A DNA stretch of 64,000 nucleotides from an uncultured delta proteobacterium (lineage in GTDB: Bacteria > Desulfobacterota > Binatia > UBA9968), in NCBI GenBank assembly GCA_963801935.1, contig CAWDHA010000011.1, positions 25,923-89,922 on the forward strand, written 5' to 3'. The translations under genes and the position numbers were made by a program. The notes beneath the pieces were generated by a model. It was given only the letters and a program-made list of their open reading frames with translations, was not told the origin of the DNA and made no database searches. Every line of letters starts with the position of its first letter. Positions within the stretch are counted from its first letter, which is position 1. Below are positions 11,380 through 23,919 of the stretch, one piece after another.

Positions 11380-12666
11380 TTGGAAGACCAATCTACAAGC
11401 TCCCCTGCCCGAGGAGTTGCCGGCGAAGCATCTGCAAGCGCGTCGCCGCGCTTTCGCTTCAGGATGTTTGCCTCTCTGCGCCACGTTGATTATCGTTATC
11501 TCTGGAGCGGCACCTTGATGATGAGCGCCGGCCAGTGGGTCCAGCAAGTTACCCTGGGGTGGTTGCTCTACGACCTGACAGGCAATTCCTTACTGCTCGG
11601 CGCGCTCAACGGCTTGCGCGCTTTGCCCTTCTTAGTCACCGGGCCGATGGCCGGCGTCGCCGCGGACCGTATGAATCGCCGCAGATTGCTGCTCAACACC
11701 CAGTGGGTGCTTATCGTTACAGCGCTGCTCATGGGCGTGCTGGTCGCTTCGCCGTATTTGCACGTGTGGCACATCTTCGTTTTCACTTTGATCACCGGCG
11801 TGGCGTGGACCATCACCGAGCCCGTGCGTATGAGCATGATCCCCAGTGTGGTGCCGAAGGAAGACATGGTCAACGCCATCGCGCTCAATTCCGGTGGCTT
11901 TAACTTGATGAAAGTCCTCGGCCCGGCCCTGGGTGGCGCGCTGATTGCGGTGTTCGGCGCGGCCGAAAACTTCTTCATCCAGGCTCTCGCTTATGTGGGC
12001 GTGCTGGTCATGATCTACCTCATGTACATTCCGCCGCACCGCGCCGACGCCAAGCGCTCCTCGGCGATGGCAAATCTAAAAGAAGGGTTTTCCTACGTGT
12101 GGTCGACACCCGCCGTATTGGCGCTAATGGCGCTGGCTTATGTTCCCCGAGTGTTCGCTGTGCCATATCAGACACTCATGCCGGTGTTTCAAAAAGACGT
12201 GTTGCAAGTGGGCCCTGAAGGTCTCGGAATGTTGATGGCGGCGCCGGGACTGGGCGCGGTTATCGCAGTGCTCACGATGGCGTGGCTTGGTGACGGCTTA
12301 AAACGTCACGGCCTGATGTTGGTGGTCAGCATCTGCGTCCTGGGCTTTTTTCTGATTGTGTTCTCGCAACTCAAATCATTGCCGCTCGCGCTAATCGTGC
12401 TCGTGATTGCCGGCATGTTTCAGATGTTTTTTCTCGCCAGTACCGCGACGATGATCCAGCTCCTGGTGCCTGACGAATTGCGTGGGCGGGTGATGAGCCT
12501 TTATATGCTCGACCGCGGCTTTATGCCGGCGGGCGCGTTATTTGCCGGCGCCGCGGCGCACTTCATCGGCGCGCCGATGACGGTGGCAATGATGGGCGCC
12601 CTGGTCATTGTTTTCACTTTGATTGTCGCGTGGCGCATACCGGCCATCCGTACTCTGGAATGCTAG
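11380..12666 (+). CDS. MFS transporter
   Basis: 12 predicted TM helices. The DRMNRRRLLL loop 2-3 motif (MFS signature D-R-x-G-R-R). Start could be the internal Met ~11464. Confidence 0.75.
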   Translation: MEDQSTSSPARGVAGEASASASPRFRFRMFASLRHVDYRYLWSGTLMMSAGQWVQQVTLGWLLYDLTGNSLLLGALNGLRALPFLVTGPMAGVAADRMNRRRLLLNTQWVLIVTALLMGVLVASPYLHVWHIFVFTLITGVAWTITEPVRMSMIPSVVPKEDMVNAIALNSGGFNLMKVLGPALGGALIAVFGAAENFFIQALAYVGVLVMIYLMYIPPHRADAKRSSAMANLKEGFSYVWSTPAVLALMALAYVPRVFAVPYQTLMPVFQKDVLQVGPEGLGMLMAAPGLGAVIAVLTMAWLGDGLKRHGLMLVVSICVLGFFLIVFSQLKSLPLALIVLVIAGMFQMFFLASTATMIQLLVPDELRGRVMSLYMLDRGFMPAGALFAGAAAHFIGAPMTVAMMGALVIVFTLIVAWRIPAIRTLEC

Positions 12667-13854: not shown

Positions 13855-14225
13855 TATAAGCGATCGACACGCACAAAGTCGAGGTTTGCTGGAACCTGCA
13901 GCAGTTGGTAATTCTTAATAGCATGCTTTGCACATCCTGACTTGAGAGCAACAATGGACTGACAACAGCAGCGACATTATTGGGAGTTAGATCTCCATGC
14001 TTTCTAGACAATCACATCGTGCTGCGGTATAGAGAATCACGTTTCTTTGATTTCCATCGTCTAAATTAGAGTGCTAGAAGACTTCTCCTCGACCTTTCGA
14101 CCTCTTCATACTGAAGGGATGAATGGCCGCTGGCGCGATTTGCGGCGTTGGCGCGGCGATTTTCTGAGCCAATCGGGATTTTGCAAGCGGCCTAAGTTAA
14201 TACCTAAACAGCGGAGGAAGAAAAT

Positions 14226-15044
14226 ATGAACGCAACATTATTGAAGCGTGGCTGGTTGTTGGTGCTCGTGTTATCGTTAGCGGCTGCATTTGGTAGCGCC
14301 AACGCGCAGCCCGCCAAGCAGTTCGAGCCGCAAGTCGGTCAGGATGGGAAAGACGTGATCTGGGTCCCCACGCCGCAGGCTTTGGTGGATAAGATGCTTG
14401 ATATGGCCAAAGTCTCGCCACAGGACTACGTCATTGATCTCGGTTCCGGCGATGGCCGCACGGTGATCACCGCAGCCAAGCGCGGCTCTAAGGCTCTCGG
14501 CATCGAATACAATCCGGACATGGTCGAGCTATCCAAGCGTGCCGCCGCTAAAGAGGGTATGAGCGACAAGGCGAGTTTCATGAAGGCCGATCTATTCGAG
14601 AGCGATTTTTCCCAGGCGCAAGTGATCACGATGTTTCTGCTCTCGAGCATCAACCTCAAGCTCCGGCCAAAGATCCTCGATCTCAAGCCGGGGACGCGCA
14701 TCGTATCGAACAGCTTCGATATGGCAGAATGGAAGCCGGATGAAACAGCGACTATCCCAAATTGCAATTCGTGGTGCACGGCGCATTTGTGGATTGTGCC
14801 CGCGAAAGTCAACGGCACGTGGAAATTGCCCCAGGGAGAGCTGACCTTAAAACAAACATTTCAGATGATTAATGGCACGCTCAAGTCTGGGAATGAGGTC
14901 GCGCAAGTTACGGGTAAGCTCAATGGAGACGAGATCACCTTTAGCGCCGGCGAGGCGCACTACAGCGGCAAAGTTAACGGCAACTCTATTGCCGGCATCG
15001 TCAAATCCGGCGGCAACTGGAGCGCCACGCGCACAGCGAGCTAG
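14226..15044 (+). CDS. secreted class-I SAM-dependent methyltransferase-fold protein with C-terminal beta-rich extension (paralog 1)
   Basis: RBS GGAGGA. Signal peptide LLVLVLSLAAAFGSANA. MTase motif I VIDLGSGDGRTVITAAKRG and conserved VPTP motif. C-terminal CNSWCTAHLWIVPAKVNGTWKL... extension. Confidence 0.6.
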   Translation: MNATLLKRGWLLVLVLSLAAAFGSANAQPAKQFEPQVGQDGKDVIWVPTPQALVDKMLDMAKVSPQDYVIDLGSGDGRTVITAAKRGSKALGIEYNPDMVELSKRAAAKEGMSDKASFMKADLFESDFSQAQVITMFLLSSINLKLRPKILDLKPGTRIVSNSFDMAEWKPDETATIPNCNSWCTAHLWIVPAKVNGTWKLPQGELTLKQTFQMINGTLKSGNEVAQVTGKLNGDEITFSAGEAHYSGKVNGNSIAGIVKSGGNWSATRTAS

Positions 15045-15168
15045 GATAGTGCCTCATGACCGCTTAGCTTGAATGTCGGTTCTGAGCGGCACCCTGTGTG
15101 AAAACTCCGCGCGACTTAGACGATTCACCAAGAGCGGGAGAGAAATTACAAGCATTGGAGGAGCCATC

Positions 15169-15969
15169 GTGGTTAAAAACATTTTCTTAGCACTCTGGTT
15201 TGTCGTCGCCATTGCCGGCGGTATCGCTCAGGGACAATCGAGTAAAGATTTCCAGCCAGAGGTTGGGCAAGCGGGCAAGGACGTCGTCTGGGTCCCTACA
15301 CCACAAGAGTTGGTTGACAAGATGTTGGACATGGCGAAGCTCACGCCCAAGGATTACATCATCGATCTCGGTTCCGGCGATGGGCGCACCGTAATCACCG
15401 CAGCCAAGCGCGGCTCCAAAGCCCTAGGCATCGAGTACAATCCGGACATGGTCGAGCTAGCCAAGCGTGCCGCCGCCAAGGAAGGCGTGAGCGACAAGGC
15501 GAGTTTCATGAAGGCCGATCTTTTCGAGAGCGATTTCTCTCAGGCGCAGGTGATCACGATGTTTCTTTTGCCGAGTATCAATATAAAATTGCGGCCAAAG
15601 ATTCTCGACATGAGACCCGGGACGCGAGTCGTCTCGAATTCGTTCGATATGGAAGATTGGAAACCGGACGAAACCGCAAACGTCGAAGGGTGCAGCAACT
15701 GGTGCACGGCGCATCTGTGGATTGTGCCGGCGAAAGTGAACGGCACGTGGAAGCTGCCGCAGGGAGAGCTGACAATTAAACAAACATTTCAGATGATCAC
15801 CGGCACCTTGAAAAACGGCAACACTTCGAGCCCGATCAACGGCAAGCTCAACGGCGATCAAATCGCCTTCAGCGCCGGCAATACCCAGTACAGCGGCCGC
15901 GTGGCCGGGAACTCAATGGAAGGCAGTGCCGGCGCCAGCCAATGGAGCGCGAAGCGGGCGGGTAAGTAG
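15169..15969 (+). CDS. secreted class-I SAM-MTase-fold protein (paralog 2, tandem)
   Basis: GTG 15169 is preceded by GGAGGA. Signal peptide FLALWFVVAIAGGIAQG. IIDLGSGDGRTVITAAKRG. ~75% identical to paralog 1 including the C-terminal extension. Confidence 0.6.
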   Translation: MVKNIFLALWFVVAIAGGIAQGQSSKDFQPEVGQAGKDVVWVPTPQELVDKMLDMAKLTPKDYIIDLGSGDGRTVITAAKRGSKALGIEYNPDMVELAKRAAAKEGVSDKASFMKADLFESDFSQAQVITMFLLPSINIKLRPKILDMRPGTRVVSNSFDMEDWKPDETANVEGCSNWCTAHLWIVPAKVNGTWKLPQGELTIKQTFQMITGTLKNGNTSSPINGKLNGDQIAFSAGNTQYSGRVAGNSMEGSAGASQWSAKRAGK

Positions 15970-16571: not shown

Positions 16572-17705
16572 TTACGCGCCCAAGCTGTAAGCTTTCGTCG
16601 GGTTATCCCAGAGAATCTTGGTGCGCGAGGCGCGCGAAATCTTGTCATTGCCGCTGATTGCGCCGACGGTTTTATCCGGAAATTTGTCGATCGCATCGCT
16701 GTGCGGGTAATCGGTGGCGATCATGAGATAATCATCACCGATATGGTCGATGAATACCGGCGCCAGTTCTTCGCCCGCTTCGCAGCTTATCCAACAGTTG
16801 CGTTTGAAATAGTAGCTCGGCTTTTCTTTGGTAATCTTGGCCGACCCGTGGGATTCGTGCTCCCAGTGCTCATCCATGCGTTCTAGCCAAAACGGCGCCC
16901 AACCGCAGCCCGATTCGAGGTGCGCGACTTTGAGTTTGGGAAATCTCTCGAGCACGCCGTCGCCGCAAAAATTTAAGCAAGCCAGCATCTGCTCCAGCGG
17001 ATGGCAGGCCACATGCCGGCCGAATTCACTGTAGCGATCGGAGCCCGCCTGCTGTAGAACGGTGCGCGCGCCCTCGTGAACGCAGATGGTAACGCCGAGG
17101 CCCGAGCAGACGTCGTAAATCGGATCGTAATCCGGACTTGCGAAGGTGCGGCCACACAGTTTGTTCGGCCGCCAGAAAATTCCTACCAAGCCCAACTTCT
17201 CGCGCGCATATTTAAGCTCTTCGACGGCGCGCGCCGGATCCTGCAGCGGCAACAGCATGACGCCGTAGAGACGTTTGCGATCGTGGTCGCAATAGTCCGC
17301 CAGCCAGGTATTGTAGGCGCGGCAAATCGCCGCGCTTAACTCAGGATCGATATCGTCACGCCACATGATATAGAGGCCCATCGTCGGGAAGAGCACGGAG
17401 ACGTCGATGCCTTCGCGCTCCATGTCGCGCAGGTTGGATGCCGGGTCGAACTTGTTGGCGTAAGCATCGGCGAAGCACTCGCGCCAGCGCTCCGAGGATG
17501 AAAAAATGTATCCATAGTCTACCGTCTCCCGGCCGGGCCGTTGAGCGGAGTCGGAGACCGGTTTGCCGTCGACTTCGCGCACGGTCTGGTTCGGTCCGGC
17601 CAGATGCACCCGGTGTCTGAATTTCTCGGGTAAATATTTTTGATACAGATCGCTGGGCTCGAGAATATGCCGGTCGGCATCGATGACTTTAAATCCGTCC
17701 CTCAT
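16572..17705 (-). CDS. amidohydrolase family 2 (ACMSD-like)
   Basis: Start MRDGFKVIDADRHILEP at 17705 with GGAGG RBS. ...ATDYPHSD... C-terminal motif. The ORF-track start at 17930 is unlikely. Confidence 0.75.
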   Translation of the reverse strand: MRDGFKVIDADRHILEPSDLYQKYLPEKFRHRVHLAGPNQTVREVDGKPVSDSAQRPGRETVDYGYIFSSSERWRECFADAYANKFDPASNLRDMEREGIDVSVLFPTMGLYIMWRDDIDPELSAAICRAYNTWLADYCDHDRKRLYGVMLLPLQDPARAVEELKYAREKLGLVGIFWRPNKLCGRTFASPDYDPIYDVCSGLGVTICVHEGARTVLQQAGSDRYSEFGRHVACHPLEQMLACLNFCGDGVLERFPKLKVAHLESGCGWAPFWLERMDEHWEHESHGSAKITKEKPSYYFKRNCWISCEAGEELAPVFIDHIGDDYLMIATDYPHSDAIDKFPDKTVGAISGNDKISRASRTKILWDNPTKAYSLGA

Positions 17706-17805
17706 AGTGCTTCCTCCATTTTGATCGTTGGCTTGGCCGTTTATAGAATAATGGGATTTGAAATTTAAGAGCTCGAGGCGCAGAAGCGCTCGGCCCCCTT
17801 TCCGT

Positions 17806-18831
17806 TCAGACTCCGCCGAATCCTTCATCCTGCGCTTCGGCCAACAACCATGGATCTCTAATCTCCGTGGTTGGCCCTTTACCGGCAAGTACATTGACGA
17901 CTTCGCGAGCCGCGTGGGTTTGACAGTCAATATAGGACTGATCGGAATTGGCCGCAGTGTGGCAGGTGACGATTACGTTAGGCAAAGTCAGCAGTTTGTG
18001 ATCCGCCGGCAAAGGTTCCGGCTCGGTAACGTCGAGGGCGGCACCGGCAAGCTCGCCGGCGACCAGGGCGTCATATAACGCGTCCGAGTCAACCAAACCG
18101 CCGCGCGCGCAGTTGATAAGATAAGCGGTGTTCTTCATCGCTTTGAACTGCGCCGTGCTGAACATTTTTCTCGTCTGCTTGGTGAGCGGCGCGTGCAGGC
18201 TGATAAAATCGGAAGTTTTGACCAGTTCATCAAAAGTTACCATTTTTACGCCCATGCCCTCGGCGACTTTTGGCTCCAGGTACGGATCGTAGGTCTGGAC
18301 ATTCAGCCTCATACCCTGGGCGCGCGGCGCCACCTGCTTGCCGACGTGGCCCAGGCCGACAATGCCCATGGTGCGCCCTTCGATGCGGTAGACACGGCCA
18401 CGGTAGGTATGGAGCTCGGCTGTGTGACGGCGCCATTTACCATCGTGCACGTACTGGTTCATGCGCACGAGCTTGCGCGAAATGGCAATGAGTAAACCGA
18501 TCGCTTGTTCGGATACCTCGATGGAGTTGCAGCCCGCGGCGTTGCAGATGATCATGCCATGATCCTTGGCGGCCTTGAGATCCATGCGATCGACGCCGAC
18601 GCCGGTACGACAGACGACCTTGACGCGCTTCAACTGAGAAATGATTTCGCGCGTGAGCGGCACCGAACCGTGCATGATGATGCCGTCGGCGTCTTTGCCC
18701 ATTTCAACCACGTCGGCGTCAGTGGTGGGGCGCCGGATCGTCAAGTCTGCGTCGATCTCCGCCACGATCGGCTTGATGAGATCGACCGGAACATCGTTGC
18801 TGCCGAAATAGACGACGTGAAACTTGCCCAT
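17806..18831 (-). CDS. D-isomer-specific 2-hydroxyacid dehydrogenase (PGDH/glycerate DH family)
   Basis: GIVGLGHVGKQVA (NAD-binding GxGxxG). ...YLINCARGGLVD... and ...VTCHTAANS..., catalytic R/E/H signatures. Confidence 0.8.
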   Translation of the reverse strand: MGKFHVVYFGSNDVPVDLIKPIVAEIDADLTIRRPTTDADVVEMGKDADGIIMHGSVPLTREIISQLKRVKVVCRTGVGVDRMDLKAAKDHGMIICNAAGCNSIEVSEQAIGLLIAISRKLVRMNQYVHDGKWRRHTAELHTYRGRVYRIEGRTMGIVGLGHVGKQVAPRAQGMRLNVQTYDPYLEPKVAEGMGVKMVTFDELVKTSDFISLHAPLTKQTRKMFSTAQFKAMKNTAYLINCARGGLVDSDALYDALVAGELAGAALDVTEPEPLPADHKLLTLPNVIVTCHTAANSDQSYIDCQTHAAREVVNVLAGKGPTTEIRDPWLLAEAQDEGFGGV

Positions 18832-19160: not shown

Positions 19161-20828
19161 ATGAAAGTACGCCGCGCCCGGCTCACTACGGGTCTGATCT
19201 TACTGACCTATCTCGCGACCCACTTCACGAATCATGCGCTGGGGTTGATTTCCTTGGAGGCGATGGAATGGGGCCGGCGCTGGTTTCTCGCGCTGTGGCG
19301 CAACCCATTGGCAACGACGGCGCTGTATACGTCTTTACTGGTGCATTTTTCGCTTGCGCTCTGGTCGCTTTACCAACGCCGCCACCTGCGCATGCCCGTG
19401 TGGGAGACATTGCAGCTCACCATGGGCCTGGCGATTCCGCCGTTGTTGTCGATCCACTTCGTGGGCACGCGCCTGAGCCACGAATGGTTCGGCGTGGATG
19501 ATACCTACAGTCTGCTGGTACTGACACTCTGGCATGCCTCCCCATGGGACGGTGTGAAGCAGTCGATTTTGATCACCGTCGCATGGCTGCATGGCTGCAT
19601 CGGCTTTCATTTCTGGCTGCGGCTGCGGCCGTGGTATAGCCGCTCGGCGCCCTTTCTCCTGGTTTGCGCATTATTGTTTCCGCTTCTGGGGCTTCTGGGA
19701 TTTTCCCAGGCCGGCCACGAAGTGTCGAACCTGGTGGCGCAGAACCCCGCCTGGATAGAGTCGGTCGTGCGTCAAAGCAAGCTGCCAGCGCCGGGCCAGC
19801 GCCAAGTTCTGTACCGCGTTAACAACGCTGTTATCGCCGTCTTCCTGTCGACCTTGGCACTCACCCTGGTCGCGCGCGCCGCGCGTTATCTTTATGAGAG
19901 CCGCAGCCGGGTACGGATCCGCTATCCCGACGGCCGCGAAGTGCGTGTGCCCCGAGGTTTCACTGTTCTCGAAGCCAGCCGTTTCGCGCGCGTGCCGCAC
20001 GCCTCGGTGTGCGGCGGGCGCGGCCGCTGTTCGACTTGCCGGGTGCGCGTTTTGATTCCGACGTCCGGACTACCGCCGCCAAGCGGCGCCGAACAGCGAG
20101 TTTTGCAACGCGTCGGCGCTCCACCGAATGTGCGACTGGCCTGCCAGCTTCGCCCCAATGCCGACTTGTCGGTGATTCCGCTTTTACCGGCGAATGCCGC
20201 GGCAACCGCCGGCTATGAGCAGCCGGCTTATCTTGCCGGCCAGGAGCGCACCATCGCCGTGTTGTTTGCCGACTTACGTACCTTCACCGGTATCGCCGAA
20301 CAGAAATTGCCCTATGATCTGGTGTTTCTCCTGAACAGTTACTTTGCGACAGTCGGAGAGGCAATCACCGCTGCTGGCGGTATCGTCGATAAATTTATCG
20401 GCGATGGCGTCATGGCGCTCTTTGGCGTTAACAACAGCGCTGAAGCCGGTTGCCGGCAAGCGATCGCCGCGGCCCATGCCATGGTTAGAGAAATTGAGGT
20501 TCTAAGCCATAGCCTTGAAGTGGAGCTTCCCGTGCCGCTTAAACTCGGGGTCGGCATCCATAGCGGTCCGGCGGTCGTGGGTCTCATGGGTTATGGCCCG
20601 AGCATTCACCTCACCGCGATCGGCGATACCGTGAACGTCGCCAGCCGGCTCCAAGACTTGACCAAGGAATATAGTTGCTCCCTGGTAATTTCCGAACAAG
20701 TGGCAAACTACGCGAGATTGAACGTGAGCGCGTTGCCGCGGCACGAGATCACCGTGCGAAACCGCCGTGAAGCCCTGACGATTTTCGTCGTGGACGACGT
20801 CGCGAGCGTGGCCGGCAGCGTATCTTAG
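19161..20828 (+). CDS. membrane-anchored 2Fe-2S ferredoxin / class III adenylate-guanylate cyclase fusion
   Basis: N-terminal ~240 aa has 5-6 TM helices with conserved His (HFTNH, HFVGTRLSHEW, WLHGCIGFHFW). Plant-type 2Fe-2S motif CGGRGRCSTCRV...LACQ. Cyclase motifs AVLFADLRTFT...FIGDGVMALFG...NVASRL. Confidence 0.75.
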   Translation: MKVRRARLTTGLILLTYLATHFTNHALGLISLEAMEWGRRWFLALWRNPLATTALYTSLLVHFSLALWSLYQRRHLRMPVWETLQLTMGLAIPPLLSIHFVGTRLSHEWFGVDDTYSLLVLTLWHASPWDGVKQSILITVAWLHGCIGFHFWLRLRPWYSRSAPFLLVCALLFPLLGLLGFSQAGHEVSNLVAQNPAWIESVVRQSKLPAPGQRQVLYRVNNAVIAVFLSTLALTLVARAARYLYESRSRVRIRYPDGREVRVPRGFTVLEASRFARVPHASVCGGRGRCSTCRVRVLIPTSGLPPPSGAEQRVLQRVGAPPNVRLACQLRPNADLSVIPLLPANAAATAGYEQPAYLAGQERTIAVLFADLRTFTGIAEQKLPYDLVFLLNSYFATVGEAITAAGGIVDKFIGDGVMALFGVNNSAEAGCRQAIAAAHAMVREIEVLSHSLEVELPVPLKLGVGIHSGPAVVGLMGYGPSIHLTAIGDTVNVASRLQDLTKEYSCSLVISEQVANYARLNVSALPRHEITVRNRREALTIFVVDDVASVAGSVS

Positions 20829-21006
20829 ACGGTCCATGGAAACGCGCGACAGCGAGTGACTTTACCCGAAAATAGTTTGCTGCCTTGTGAAAAATCCATA
20901 ACGGATTGACCGCGACCTCTTTGGCGTAAACGCCTCCTTTGTGTTACTTAATACCGGCTGGCGTTTAGCGCGCTGGTATAAGCGGGTTAACGAAAGGGAG
21001 CAAACC

Positions 21007-21981
21007 ATGAAGATCGCGGTCATTGACGATTATCAGAATGCCTTCAAGACGCTTAAGTGCTTTCCTAAACTCAGCGGCCATGACGTGGTTGCGCATAACG
21101 ATCCGGAAACAGATCCGACCCGTCTTGCCGAGCGGCTCAAGGACGCCGAGGTCGTGGTGCTGACGCAACAACGTTCGAGCTTCCCGCGCACGGTTATCGA
21201 GCGGCTGCCCAAGTTAAAAATGATCAGTCAGACCGGCGGCGGCACGGCGCATATCGACGTCGCGGCCTGCACCGAGCGCGGCATCGTCGTCGCCGCAGGC
21301 GGCGGCGGAAGATCAAATGCCACGGCGGAATTGACGTGGGCGCTGATTCTGAGCGCGCTGCGCAACGTGCCCTATGAGGTCAAACGTTTAAAAGAGGGAC
21401 GCTGGCAATCAACTCTGGGCGTGGAGGTCAAGGATAAGACATTCGGAATTTACGCCTATGGAAAAATCGGTTCGATTGTCGCCGCCGTGGCTAAAGCGTT
21501 CGGCGCGCGGGTGGTTTGCTGGGGACGGGAAGGATCTACGAAACGCGCCCGTGACGCCGGCTTTGCGGTGGCGTCGAGCCGCGCGCAGTTCTTCGCCGGC
21601 GCCGATATCCTAACCCTGCACCTGCCGCTCAATAAAGAAACCCGCGGCATTGTGACCGGAGACGATCTGGCGCGGATGAAAACCACCGCGCTGTTGGTCA
21701 ACCCGAGCCGCTCCGGGCTCATCGCTGACGGCGCGCTGGAAGAGGCGCTCAAGGCCGGCCGGCCCGGCTTCGCCGCCGTCGATGTTTACGGAAAAGAGCC
21801 GGTGCTCGGCGCCGCCCACCCGCTGCTGCAGATGGAAAACGCCACCTGCACACCGCATCTCGGATATGTGACCCAGGAAGCCTACGAGCAATACTACGGC
21901 GTCGTCGTCGATCAGATTGTCGCCTTCGCCGCAGGAAAACCGATAAACGTGGCGAATCCGGAAGTGCTGGCGGGGAAATGA
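21007..21981 (+). CDS. D-isomer-specific 2-hydroxyacid dehydrogenase (second paralog)
   Basis: RBS GGAG, ATG 21007. GIYAYGKIGSIVA (NAD motif). ...ALLVNPSRSGLI... and ...TCTPHLGY... Confidence 0.8.
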   Translation: MKIAVIDDYQNAFKTLKCFPKLSGHDVVAHNDPETDPTRLAERLKDAEVVVLTQQRSSFPRTVIERLPKLKMISQTGGGTAHIDVAACTERGIVVAAGGGGRSNATAELTWALILSALRNVPYEVKRLKEGRWQSTLGVEVKDKTFGIYAYGKIGSIVAAVAKAFGARVVCWGREGSTKRARDAGFAVASSRAQFFAGADILTLHLPLNKETRGIVTGDDLARMKTTALLVNPSRSGLIADGALEEALKAGRPGFAAVDVYGKEPVLGAAHPLLQMENATCTPHLGYVTQEAYEQYYGVVVDQIVAFAAGKPINVANPEVLAGK

Positions 21982-23028: not shown

Positions 23029-23325
23029 GGTTCATTCCCCTGCGATTGGCAGCGCTGGTTATCGACCTCAGACCGAACCGGCGCGTCCGCATTATAGCCA
23101 AAGTGAAATTTTTATGTCGAGAGGCCGGCGCCGGAAAGATTGTCGCCTAAGGCGCAAGCCTTCACTGTTGGCCGCCGCAGATCTCTAAGCCGCGCATCGA
23201 GCGCATGTTGCGCTTCGTCAAAGAAACGGTGTGAATCGGCAGGCTTGGCGCTTGCTTCAGCGCTCAAGGGCGGATAGAAAACTTCTTAACGGTTGAACAG
23301 AAGGCCGCGGGAGGGAAATACAATA

Positions 23326-23919
23326 ATGACCATTGTGAAAGGCTACTCGATGATAGCGCAAACGAAAAGAATTCTCTTGGCGTTGTTCGTGGCGACCGCC
23401 GCTTCCCAGGCTCAAGTCCAAGCCCAGGAAACGATTCCTTTTGTGCCTTCGCCGATGCCGGTGGTGTTGCGCATGCTCGAAGTGGCGGAGTTCAAGAAGG
23501 GCGATGTGCTTTACGACATGGGCAGCGGCGACGGCCGTATCGTTATCAATGCTGCGAAAAAGTACGGCGTGCGCGGCGTCGGTGTGGACCTCAACCCGGA
23601 ATTAGTGGAAAAGGCAAAAGCCAATGCGGCGCAGGAAGGCGTTAGCCATCTGGTCGAGTTTCGCGCCGCCGACGGCCTGACCGTCGATATTTCCGAAGCT
23701 ACCGTGGTGACGCTTTACATGTTCAAGTGGTTCAATAACCAGCTCCGTCCCAAACTGCAAAAACTCAAGCCCGGCTCGCGCGTGATTGCTCACGATTTCG
23801 ACATCGATGACTGGAAACCGACCCGGGTCGAATATGTGAGCCCGAATGAATCAGCTTCCGAATTCAGCGAACCGCGCACGCTCTTTATCTGGAATATTGA
23901 AACGCCTGCGGCGCCGTAA
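23326..23919 (+). CDS. secreted class-I SAM-MTase-fold protein (paralog 3, lacks the C-terminal extension)
   Basis: RBS GGGAGGG. Signal peptide ALFVATAASQAQVQA. FVPSPMPVV...VLYDMGSGDGRIVINAAKKYG. Confidence 0.6.
   Translation: MTIVKGYSMIAQTKRILLALFVATAASQAQVQAQETIPFVPSPMPVVLRMLEVAEFKKGDVLYDMGSGDGRIVINAAKKYGVRGVGVDLNPELVEKAKANAAQEGVSHLVEFRAADGLTVDISEATVVTLYMFKWFNNQLRPKLQKLKPGSRVIAHDFDIDDWKPTRVEYVSPNESASEFSEPRTLFIWNIETPAAP

Follow-up and report, generated by a model that had tools for sequence, protein, structure and literature searches.

This study concerns three genes in a 64,000-nt stretch of the 247-kb contig CAWDHA010000011.1 from an uncultured delta proteobacterium of the Binatia; the whole stretch is referred to here as the window. 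The genes encode P1, P2 and P3, which have the core of a class I S-adenosylmethionine (SAM)-dependent methyltransferase and a predicted export signal at the N-terminus. All three open reading frames (ORFs) were confirmed, and all lie on the + strand. P1 (14226..15044, 272 aa plus stop) starts with ATG, and has the ribosome-binding site GGAGGA (14213..14218) 7 nt before it. P2 (15169..15969, 266 aa plus stop) lies in tandem with P1 and starts with GTG. This start is preferred because GGAGGA (15157..15162) lies 6 nt upstream, and the longer ORF from ATG 15073 is less likely. P3 (23326..23919, 197 aa plus stop) has GGAGGG (23310..23315) 10 nt before its ATG. The three ribosome-binding sites were read from the sequence.

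P1 and P2 are 75% identical across 259 aa (E 5e-151), while P1 and P3 are 42% identical across 136 aa of the catalytic core (E 1e-37). They are real paralogs, as the initial annotation of this DNA had proposed, with P3 as the shorter third copy; a search with tblastn found no fourth copy within the window. The ratio of nonsynonymous to synonymous substitution rates (Ka/Ks) between P1 and P2 is 0.16 over the whole length; by region it is 0.095 (core), 0.20 (the C-terminal barrel described below) and about 1 (signal region). Because the overall ratio is so low and the synonymous sites are near saturation (Ks about 1-1.5), it is concluded that the duplication is old and that both copies are under purifying selection. 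The N-terminus evolves in the fashion of a signal peptide, with physicochemical constraint only.

Methyltransferase core and cofactor site

Residue numbers of the core and barrel are those of P1. The seven-beta-strand methyltransferase core of P1 spans residues 44-192 (14355..14801, +), and that of P2 lies at about 15283-15729. Pfam recognises only generic methyltransferase domains and DOT1 in P1-P3, with Methyltransf_25 and Methyltransf_31 above cutoff. The best NCBIfam model by far is NF041081, archaeal protein-lysine N-methyltransferase, with E-values from 1e-33 to 3e-36 (1.4e-33 for P1, 2.6e-36 for P3). The closest solved structures to P1 are 5bxy from Salinibacter ruber (E 3.9e-38) and aKMT from Sulfolobus (5fa8, 5fad and 5jwj; E 3e-35), which align along the whole domain of about 150 residues, 5fa8 over residues 44-191; P2 has the same family matches.

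An AlphaFold2 (AF2) model of P1, made from 70 homologs, is confident (predicted local distance difference test score, pLDDT, 93.4; predicted TM-score, pTM, 0.85), and has the alternating beta/alpha core of the fold. A Foldseek search with this model gave target TM-scores (TMt) of 0.93 for 5bxy and 0.90 for aKMT, with a root mean square deviation of 1.2-1.9 Å and 42-44% identity. The core of P1-P3 is of the aKMT/ATPSCKMT type, a family of seven-beta-strand lysine methyltransferases. The SAM-methyltransferase fold assigned in the initial annotation is thus borne out, as class I, by the Pfam, NCBIfam and PDB profile matches and by the model. The aKMT family also takes in the mitochondrial enzymes ATPSCKMT (FAM173B) and ANTKMT (FAM173A) (PMC9006661, PMC5828452).

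Conservation was counted in 70 homologs sharing 38-86% identity with P1. All three window proteins have motif I, V/I-D-L/M-G-S-G-D-G-R (D71-R78 in P1, 14436-14459). The VPTP motif (residues 47-50) is found in P1 and P2 as the initial annotation had it, but not in P3, which reads VPSP. Residues D71, G75, D76, G77 and G92 are invariant, and G73, E94, D122, D127 and P48 are conserved in at least 90%. The acidic residue after the second strand, E94, is E in 65/70 and D in 4, and D122, at the position for an acidic or amide residue ahead of the fourth strand, is D in 65/70 and N in 3. W46, P48 and T49 are also conserved, W46 being W in 59/70. In class I methyltransferases generally, positions of this kind make up motif I and the contacts to the ribose and adenine of SAM, the latter being those of the E94 and D122 type; this is knowledge of the fold rather than of a complex of P1. 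Judged by these residues, the cofactor site is maintained in the P1 family. Since the pocket is nearly invariant, a loss of SAM dependence is not supported, and the earlier suggestion that the fold had been repurposed for non-SAM catalysis finds no backing here.

Predicted C-terminal barrel

P1 and P2 continue beyond the core into a module that P3 lacks. In P1 this is residues 193-272 (14802..15041, +), and in P2 about 15730-15966. The initial annotation described a beta-rich extension of about 100 aa that contained Cys and Trp, and suggested a beta-sandwich or lectin-like module. The added module is shorter, about 80 aa, as the CNSWC...HLWIVP stretch is still part of the methyltransferase core, where it makes up the final hairpin and strand, and aligns to the C-terminus of aKMT and 5bxy. 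Its modelled structure is also different: eight strands connected by hairpins, between residues 197 and 269, forming an up-and-down beta-barrel, which has a pLDDT of 95 when modelled alone.

Foldseek matches to the barrel are weak (E 2.5e-3 to 3e-2, query TM-score, TMq, 0.6-0.78), and all are up-and-down barrels of the calycin type, including cellular retinol-binding and fatty acid-binding proteins (CRBP/FABP, E 2.5e-3) and shwanavidin (TMq 0.76-0.78). No Pfam family was found for the extension among 45 diverse copies. Within the module, G197 is invariant, W199 is W in 65/70, and the last strand carries the C-terminal consensus W-x-A-T-R269. A G-x-W in the first strand together with a basic residue in the last resembles the calycin signature. 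On the basis of the model, the extension is a new small domain, predicted to be an eight-stranded calycin-type barrel similar to avidin and FABP. It would be expected to bind a substrate or a partner.

Predicted export signals

The N-termini were scored for charge in the n-region, for a hydrophobic core (h-region), and for the residues at -3 and -1. P1 begins MNATLLKR-GWLLVLVLSLAAAF-GSANA↓Q (the arrow marks the predicted cleavage site), in which K7 and R8 precede a 12-aa h-region and the site ANA↓Q, so that the predicted Sec signal peptide is residues 1-27 (14226..14306, +). P2 begins MVKN-IFLALWFVVAIAGGIA-QG↓Q, with a K, a 16-aa h-region and the site AQG↓Q (residues 1-22, 15169-15234). P3 has ...QTKR-ILLALFVATAA-SQAQVQA↓Q, with KR, an 11-aa h-region and the site VQA↓Q (residues 1-33, 23326-23424, +). 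All three have the charged n-region, h-region and small -3/-1 residues of a Sec signal. In P1 the mature protein opens with a lead-in (14307..14354, +) of consensus F/Y-E-P-x-V-G-Q-x-G-K-D, which is specific to the long exported clade; P35, G38, Q39, G41, K42 and D43 are conserved among the homologs (A1).

The same kind of N-terminus occurs across the family. Of 106 diverse long-type representatives whose N-terminus is complete, 93 have a hydrophobic N-terminal region, which is preceded by K or R in 92/93 and followed by an AXA-like site in 86/93. The h-region has a median length of 16 aa. In 87/106 the net charge is higher before the hydrophobic segment than in the neutral or acidic stretch of 15 residues behind it. 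Close homologs of P3 have the same kind of signal in 115/119. A signal is predicted in this way for about 90% of diverse relatives, and the cleavable signal peptides of the initial annotation are consistent with this. Some relatives have lipoboxes, for example in Leptolyngbya (...ISTGC, followed by a Pro/Ser-rich tether), and some distant ones have canonical twin-arginine motifs (SRRHFL, TRRSFA, TRRAWL). The methyltransferase domain can also be internal to a longer protein: it is found after a signal peptide and DUF2914, ahead of an FGE-sulfatase domain, and together with Kelch repeats in a protein whose tail has the form GCGC...TM...RRR.

The cysteines form a related pattern. C180-x3-C184 (14763..14777, +), in the last hairpin of the P1 core, is a putative disulfide, because the two residues co-occur: both are present in 32/70 homologs, neither in 37, and a single one in 1. 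Mature homologs mostly carry 0 or 2 Cys, and 117/119 of the P3-type homologs have none in the mature part. Taken together, the variety of signals, the internal placement of the domain and the pattern of Cys argue for an extracytoplasmic site, and against an anchor of the FAM173 kind that faces the cytoplasm. The initial annotation had offered a membrane anchor as an alternative, which fits poorly with the short h-regions (11-16 aa) and with the AXA↓Q sites and N-in charge bias.

Export in the folded state, by a twin-arginine translocation (Tat) signal, would allow a protein to carry bound SAM with it. This was considered for P1 and rejected for its clade: P1 has KR at this position, and RR is present in 11 of about 110 close homologs, where a single R is usual. 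It may apply to some distant relatives. Because the twin arginine is not conserved, P1 is probably exported unfolded by Sec and would not bring SAM along. The initial annotation had remarked that a SAM-dependent enzyme is not expected in a compartment that lacks SAM; since the methyltransferase fold and the export signals are both supported, this paradox is real.

Several longer proteins in the family have unusual architectures. P0140, P0160, P0165, P0247, P0258, P0121 and P0122 (430-620 aa) have two or three tandem aKMT-like domains behind one signal peptide. P0211 (920 aa) has an aKMT-like domain and barrel followed by Kelch repeats, a C-terminal GCGC, a hydrophobic helix and an Arg-rich tail that resembles a surface sorting signal of the MYXO-CTERM type; its N-terminus as called has no signal peptide, and may be mis-called. 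P0141, in which HTH_25 precedes the methyltransferase, was set aside as evidence on topology, as it appears to be an upstream gene that reads on into an ordinary gene with a signal peptide.

Distribution and linkage to a LAT-type permease

The family is very common. Word-index searches gave at least 8000 matches each for P1 and P3, and an exhaustive search gave 1074 clusters at 50% identity (E <= 1e-30). A locus search of GTDB species genomes, built on a 16-sequence alignment, gave at least 576 loci, in Binatia, other metagenome-assembled genomes (MAGs) labelled Deltaproteobacteria, Burkholderiales, Acidobacteriota/Vicinamibacterales, Hyphomicrobiales and Gammaproteobacteria. Among the matches listed, the closest named relatives are Candidatus Binatia. 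In all sources the annotation is 'class I SAM-dependent methyltransferase' or similar, and nothing more. Tandem duplicates of the P1/P2 kind occur in 14/65 loci.

In some other bacteria the methyltransferase gene adjoins one for an 'amino acid permease'. This is the case in Chelatococcus sp. CO-6 (methyltransferase WP_019404735.1) and Agrobacterium salinitolerans DG3-1 (methyltransferase WP_217006168.1, permease WP_217006166.1), where in one genome the methyltransferase gene is downstream and in the other it is upstream with a 17-nt overlap. The same permease, 50-57% identical, is present in three alphaproteobacterial MAG loci, and in the cyanobacterium Leptolyngbya boryana NIES-2135 a 47%-identical permease (BAY59184.1) lies 17 nt upstream of a short aKMT-like gene of the lipoprotein type (BAY59185.1). 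The pairing is thus repeated in both Alphaproteobacteria and Cyanobacteria, and either gene can come first.

Metagenome contigs were then searched with the permease alone, and the 80 best loci (numbered with the prefix L) were analysed. An aKMT-like gene is directly adjacent on the same strand in 66/80, and in 33/35 of the loci that have at least 900 nt on both sides of the permease. The two genes share 4 nt in L135, and in L108, L126 and L140 the permease is linked to two or three tandem methyltransferases. The adjacent enzymes have Sec, Tat or lipoprotein signals in all 46 that could be analysed, 25 of them with the barrel and 21 without. They are up to 67% identical to P1 (L124) and 59% identical to P3 (L125), which places the window genes in the same enzyme groups. 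In L123 and L141, which are permease loci without a methyltransferase, the neighbours gave no informative Pfam match.

A second methyltransferase is found beside the permease. Protein-L-isoaspartate O-methyltransferase (PCMT) is present in 8/80 loci (L112, L113, L115, L128, L144, L147, L156 and L164; for example L113:4553-5329), with scores of 251-254 bits where the NCBIfam equivalog cutoff is 188, and it carries a 45-75-aa N-terminal extension that contains a signal peptide or lipobox. In two of these eight it replaces the aKMT-like enzyme. An exported protein-repair methyltransferase is itself unexpected.

In L115 (213-2273) the LAT-type permease and a short aKMT-like methyltransferase share a single 686-aa ORF, with an Arg-rich loop and an additional hydrophobic helix between them. 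This may be a natural fusion, which would hold the enzyme to the outer side of the membrane, although it is a single example and a sequencing error is possible. Long 'fusion' ORFs in L093 and L100 were rejected as Arg-rich artefacts of the wrong frame. A short aKMT-like gene on a plasmid of Gloeothece verrucosa PCC 7822 (L082, 1384-2010), with an N-terminus resembling a signal anchor, adjoins an HPP-family membrane protein and a giant Calx-beta protein rather than the LAT-type permease; of five plasmid copies, it is the only one without the permease.

The permease is a 12-helix APC protein of the LAT/SLC7 branch, and its closest solved structures are BasC (6f2g), xCT, y+LAT, b0,+AT and LAT1 (E 2e-50 to 1e-40). 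Its subfamily has the motifs LTYGGW[NT]E and [ED]YT[AS]P[VA]FW. Relatives of the BasC/LAT type are obligate exchangers. We know of no LAT-family member that carries SAM. The two methyltransferase families with export signals share the use of SAM and the release of S-adenosylhomocysteine (SAH). Most simply, the permease would export SAM, probably against SAH. This suggests a SAM exporter, probably a SAM/SAH exchanger, that feeds the periplasm.

Gene neighbourhood in the window

The neighbours of P1-P3 in the window are unrelated metabolic genes, and genes for catabolic enzymes are abundant in the window as a whole. Of the transporter genes, the closest is one of the MFS_3 family (11380-12666); between it and P1 lies a hydrolase gene on the opposite strand. 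Clustering of ORFs in 79 genome loci gave no specific conserved partner around the methyltransferase. Bug-type binding proteins and amidohydrolases form frequent clusters of neighbours; they are generally abundant in these genomes and were discounted as specific partners. An apparent neighbour family in 13 loci proved to be an artefact, made up of ORFs antisense to the methyltransferase gene.

Between P2 and P3 there is a gene of unusual, redox-linked architecture (19161-20828, +), whose 555-aa product has a multi-helix membrane N-terminus, a Fer2 2Fe-2S ferredoxin domain and a class III adenylate/guanylate cyclase. It is flanked by two paralogs of D-isomer-specific 2-hydroxyacid dehydrogenase (17806-18831, -, and 20941-21981, +). 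An amidohydrolase ORF (16572-17930, -) overlaps the upstream dehydrogenase by about 125 nt; its Pfam match begins at residue 83, so that its true start is probably well downstream of 17930. Together with a glyoxalase-fold protein, an NMT1-type binding protein and a zinc alcohol dehydrogenase, these genes form a catabolic patchwork with no evident link to the methyltransferases.

Proposed function

We infer export, catalysis, the kind of substrate and the role of the exchanger as follows. P1-P3 would be members of the aKMT/ATPSCKMT (FAM173) family that are exported by Sec and are soluble in the periplasm or cell envelope. After cleavage of the signal, the mature enzyme would retain an intact SAM pocket, and its most likely reaction, outside the cytoplasm, is the methylation of amino groups, probably those of lysines in envelope proteins. 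In P1 and P2 the barrel probably selects or holds the substrate or partner. SAM would be obtained after export, in other bacteria probably by way of the co-encoded LAT-type exchanger, acting as a SAM exporter or SAM/SAH antiporter. We give a probability of about one half to the proposal that P1-P3 are periplasmic SAM-dependent N-methyltransferases of envelope proteins. The wider proposal is tentative, and we think it somewhat less likely than not: that many Gram-negative bacteria have periplasmic SAM-dependent methylation and repair of proteins, in which a dedicated LAT exchanger, probably taking SAH in return, supplies SAM to exported aKMT-like lysine methyltransferases (some with the barrel, some without) and to exported PCMT, and that P1-P3 belong to such a system with the exchanger encoded elsewhere in the genome.

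A number of points weigh against these proposals. To our knowledge, no periplasmic SAM pool has been established in any free-living bacterium. The phrase 'periplasmic methyltransferase' was not found in the literature searched, which also held no paper on exported members of the aKMT-like family, on periplasmic supply of SAM or on bacterial SAM exporters. A tblastn search with two permeases at E 1e-5 found no LAT-type permease in the window, which also has no exported PCMT, and neither was found within 6 kb of the homologs in Binatia, Burkholderiales or Acidobacteriota. The signals were called with a home-made heuristic, not with SignalP. The window proteins score 115.9, 115.2 and 124.8 bits with NF041081, below its equivalog cutoff of 200; they are related to this model but are not equivalogs, and the substrate therefore need not be lysine. 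Finally, in the mitochondrial members of the family the N-terminal hydrophobic segment is an anchor and the enzyme acts on the matrix side (PMC9006661).

This last point leads to the reading of which we think least, namely that the N-terminal segment is an uncleaved anchor and that the catalytic domain is cytoplasmic and methylates the inner face of membrane proteins, as ATPSCKMT and ANTKMT do in mitochondria. FAM173A and FAM173B do have an N-terminal transmembrane domain and matrix-facing substrates (PMC9006661), and the SAM paradox would vanish. The sequences nevertheless point the other way: K or R before the segment and neutral or acidic residues after it predict N-in/C-out, the h-regions are short for a transmembrane helix, and AXA↓Q sites, lipoprotein and Tat signals in relatives, and multidomain proteins led by a signal peptide all speak for export. 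In the same sense, the ORF in L115 places an Arg-rich loop and an extra hydrophobic helix after the cytoplasmic C-terminus of the permease. Only slightly better placed, and still very improbable, is secretion beyond the envelope (by type II secretion or vesicles), with the enzyme acting in other cells like an effector and using the SAM of the target. Such an enzyme needs no periplasmic SAM, the family is expanded with frequent tandem duplicates, and some relatives are part of large surface proteins. Its carriers are, however, free-living soil and groundwater bacteria of many phyla, there is no linkage to secretion or immunity genes, and the fact that relatives are almost always linked to an exchanger of the inner membrane, and are linked also to the PCMT repair enzyme, points to housekeeping in the producer's own envelope.

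Two further readings accept export to the periplasm, and both seem unlikely to us. The protein could be non-catalytic, a periplasmic binding protein for SAM, SAH or a related nucleoside, such as a receptor that feeds the LAT permease for uptake, or a sensor. Conservation of the pocket would be equally expected, the tight linkage to a transporter resembles binding-protein-dependent uptake, and there is no known periplasmic source of SAM. Yet conservation extends to the N-terminal W-V-P-T-P motif and to other surfaces outside the pocket that are common to active aKMT, no LAT-family transporter is known to depend on a binding protein, and the linkage of the same permease to an above-cutoff PCMT and to tandem methyltransferases fits enzymes that share a cofactor better than it fits receptors. 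Alternatively, and with no greater probability, the substrate of the enzyme could be a small molecule, such as an amine-bearing lipid, xenobiotic or periplasmic metabolite, with the barrel as a ligand cup. Calycin barrels such as avidin, FABP and lipocalin classically bind small hydrophobic ligands, and the barrel has weak fold matches to them; the scores below the lysine methyltransferase cutoff and the catabolic genes of the window are compatible with this. Against it stand the 42-44% identity to a protein-lysine methyltransferase family across the core, the lack of a barrel in P3 and in 21/46 of the permease-linked enzymes, and the lack of a conserved metabolic neighbour. With about 75 residues for eight strands, the barrel is also probably too small to have a cavity. 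Methylation of envelope proteins in the periplasm remains our preferred reading.

Comparison with known systems

The window proteins share a core of about 150 aa with aKMT (aKMT4 of Sulfolobus islandicus) and with the uncharacterised 5bxy protein. Common motifs are (V/Y)-V-P-T-P, DLGxGDGR, G-(V/I)-E after strand 2, (D/N)-x-F-E-x-D and LKPGTR-(I/V)-VS. aKMT is a cytoplasmic lysine methyltransferase of broad specificity, acting on chromatin and other proteins (PMC8927968). The window proteins differ from it in having export signals, and P1 and P2 add the GQxGKD lead-in, the CxxxC insertion and the 80-aa barrel.

ATPSCKMT and ANTKMT resemble the window proteins in that they are related to aKMT and carry a hydrophobic segment on the N-terminal side of the methyltransferase domain. 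They methylate proteins of membrane transport, namely ATP synthase subunit c and the ADP/ATP carrier (PMC9006661, PMC5828452). Their segment is an uncleaved anchor on the SAM-containing matrix side, whereas that of the window proteins resembles a cleaved Sec signal and has the opposite predicted orientation. The window proteins also lack the targeting domain that precedes the methyltransferase in ATPSCKMT and ANTKMT.

Bacterial enzymes that make methyl-lysines on proteins of the cell envelope are known, namely PKMT1 and PKMT2 of Rickettsia and KmtA of Acinetobacter; the paper that describes them does not discuss a signal peptide or the compartment of methylation (PMC11784438). They belong to an unrelated and much larger methyltransferase family, and the window proteins, unlike them, would have to act after export. 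The barrel modelled for P1 is like the calycin barrels of avidins, FABP/CRBP and lipocalins in its eight up-and-down strands, first-strand G-x-W and basic R269 in the last strand, but it has only about 75 residues and no helix, and is fused to an enzyme.

Known SAM carriers include mitochondrial SAMC and yeast Sam3. Exchange of SAM for SAH is an established way of supplying a compartment that lacks SAM, as with CTL843 of Chlamydia, and the known bacterial SAM carriers are importers of the DMT type (PMC3104491). The permease linked to the present family, which the window does not encode, differs from these in being of the LAT type.

In the textbook view, the periplasm is free of nucleotide-type cofactors such as ATP and SAM, and the methylation of envelope proteins is assumed to take place before export. 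Thousands of cofactor-competent methyltransferases with predicted export signals, in Binatia, Proteobacteria, Acidobacteriota and Cyanobacteria, challenge the view of a SAM-free periplasm. Genes of the family, moreover, are repeatedly linked to those for an amino-acid exchanger and a repair methyltransferase with an export signal. Should this exchanger carry SAM, it would be part of a new system for the maintenance or modification of the cell envelope, and SAM would be a new class of substrate for LAT/SLC7 transporters.

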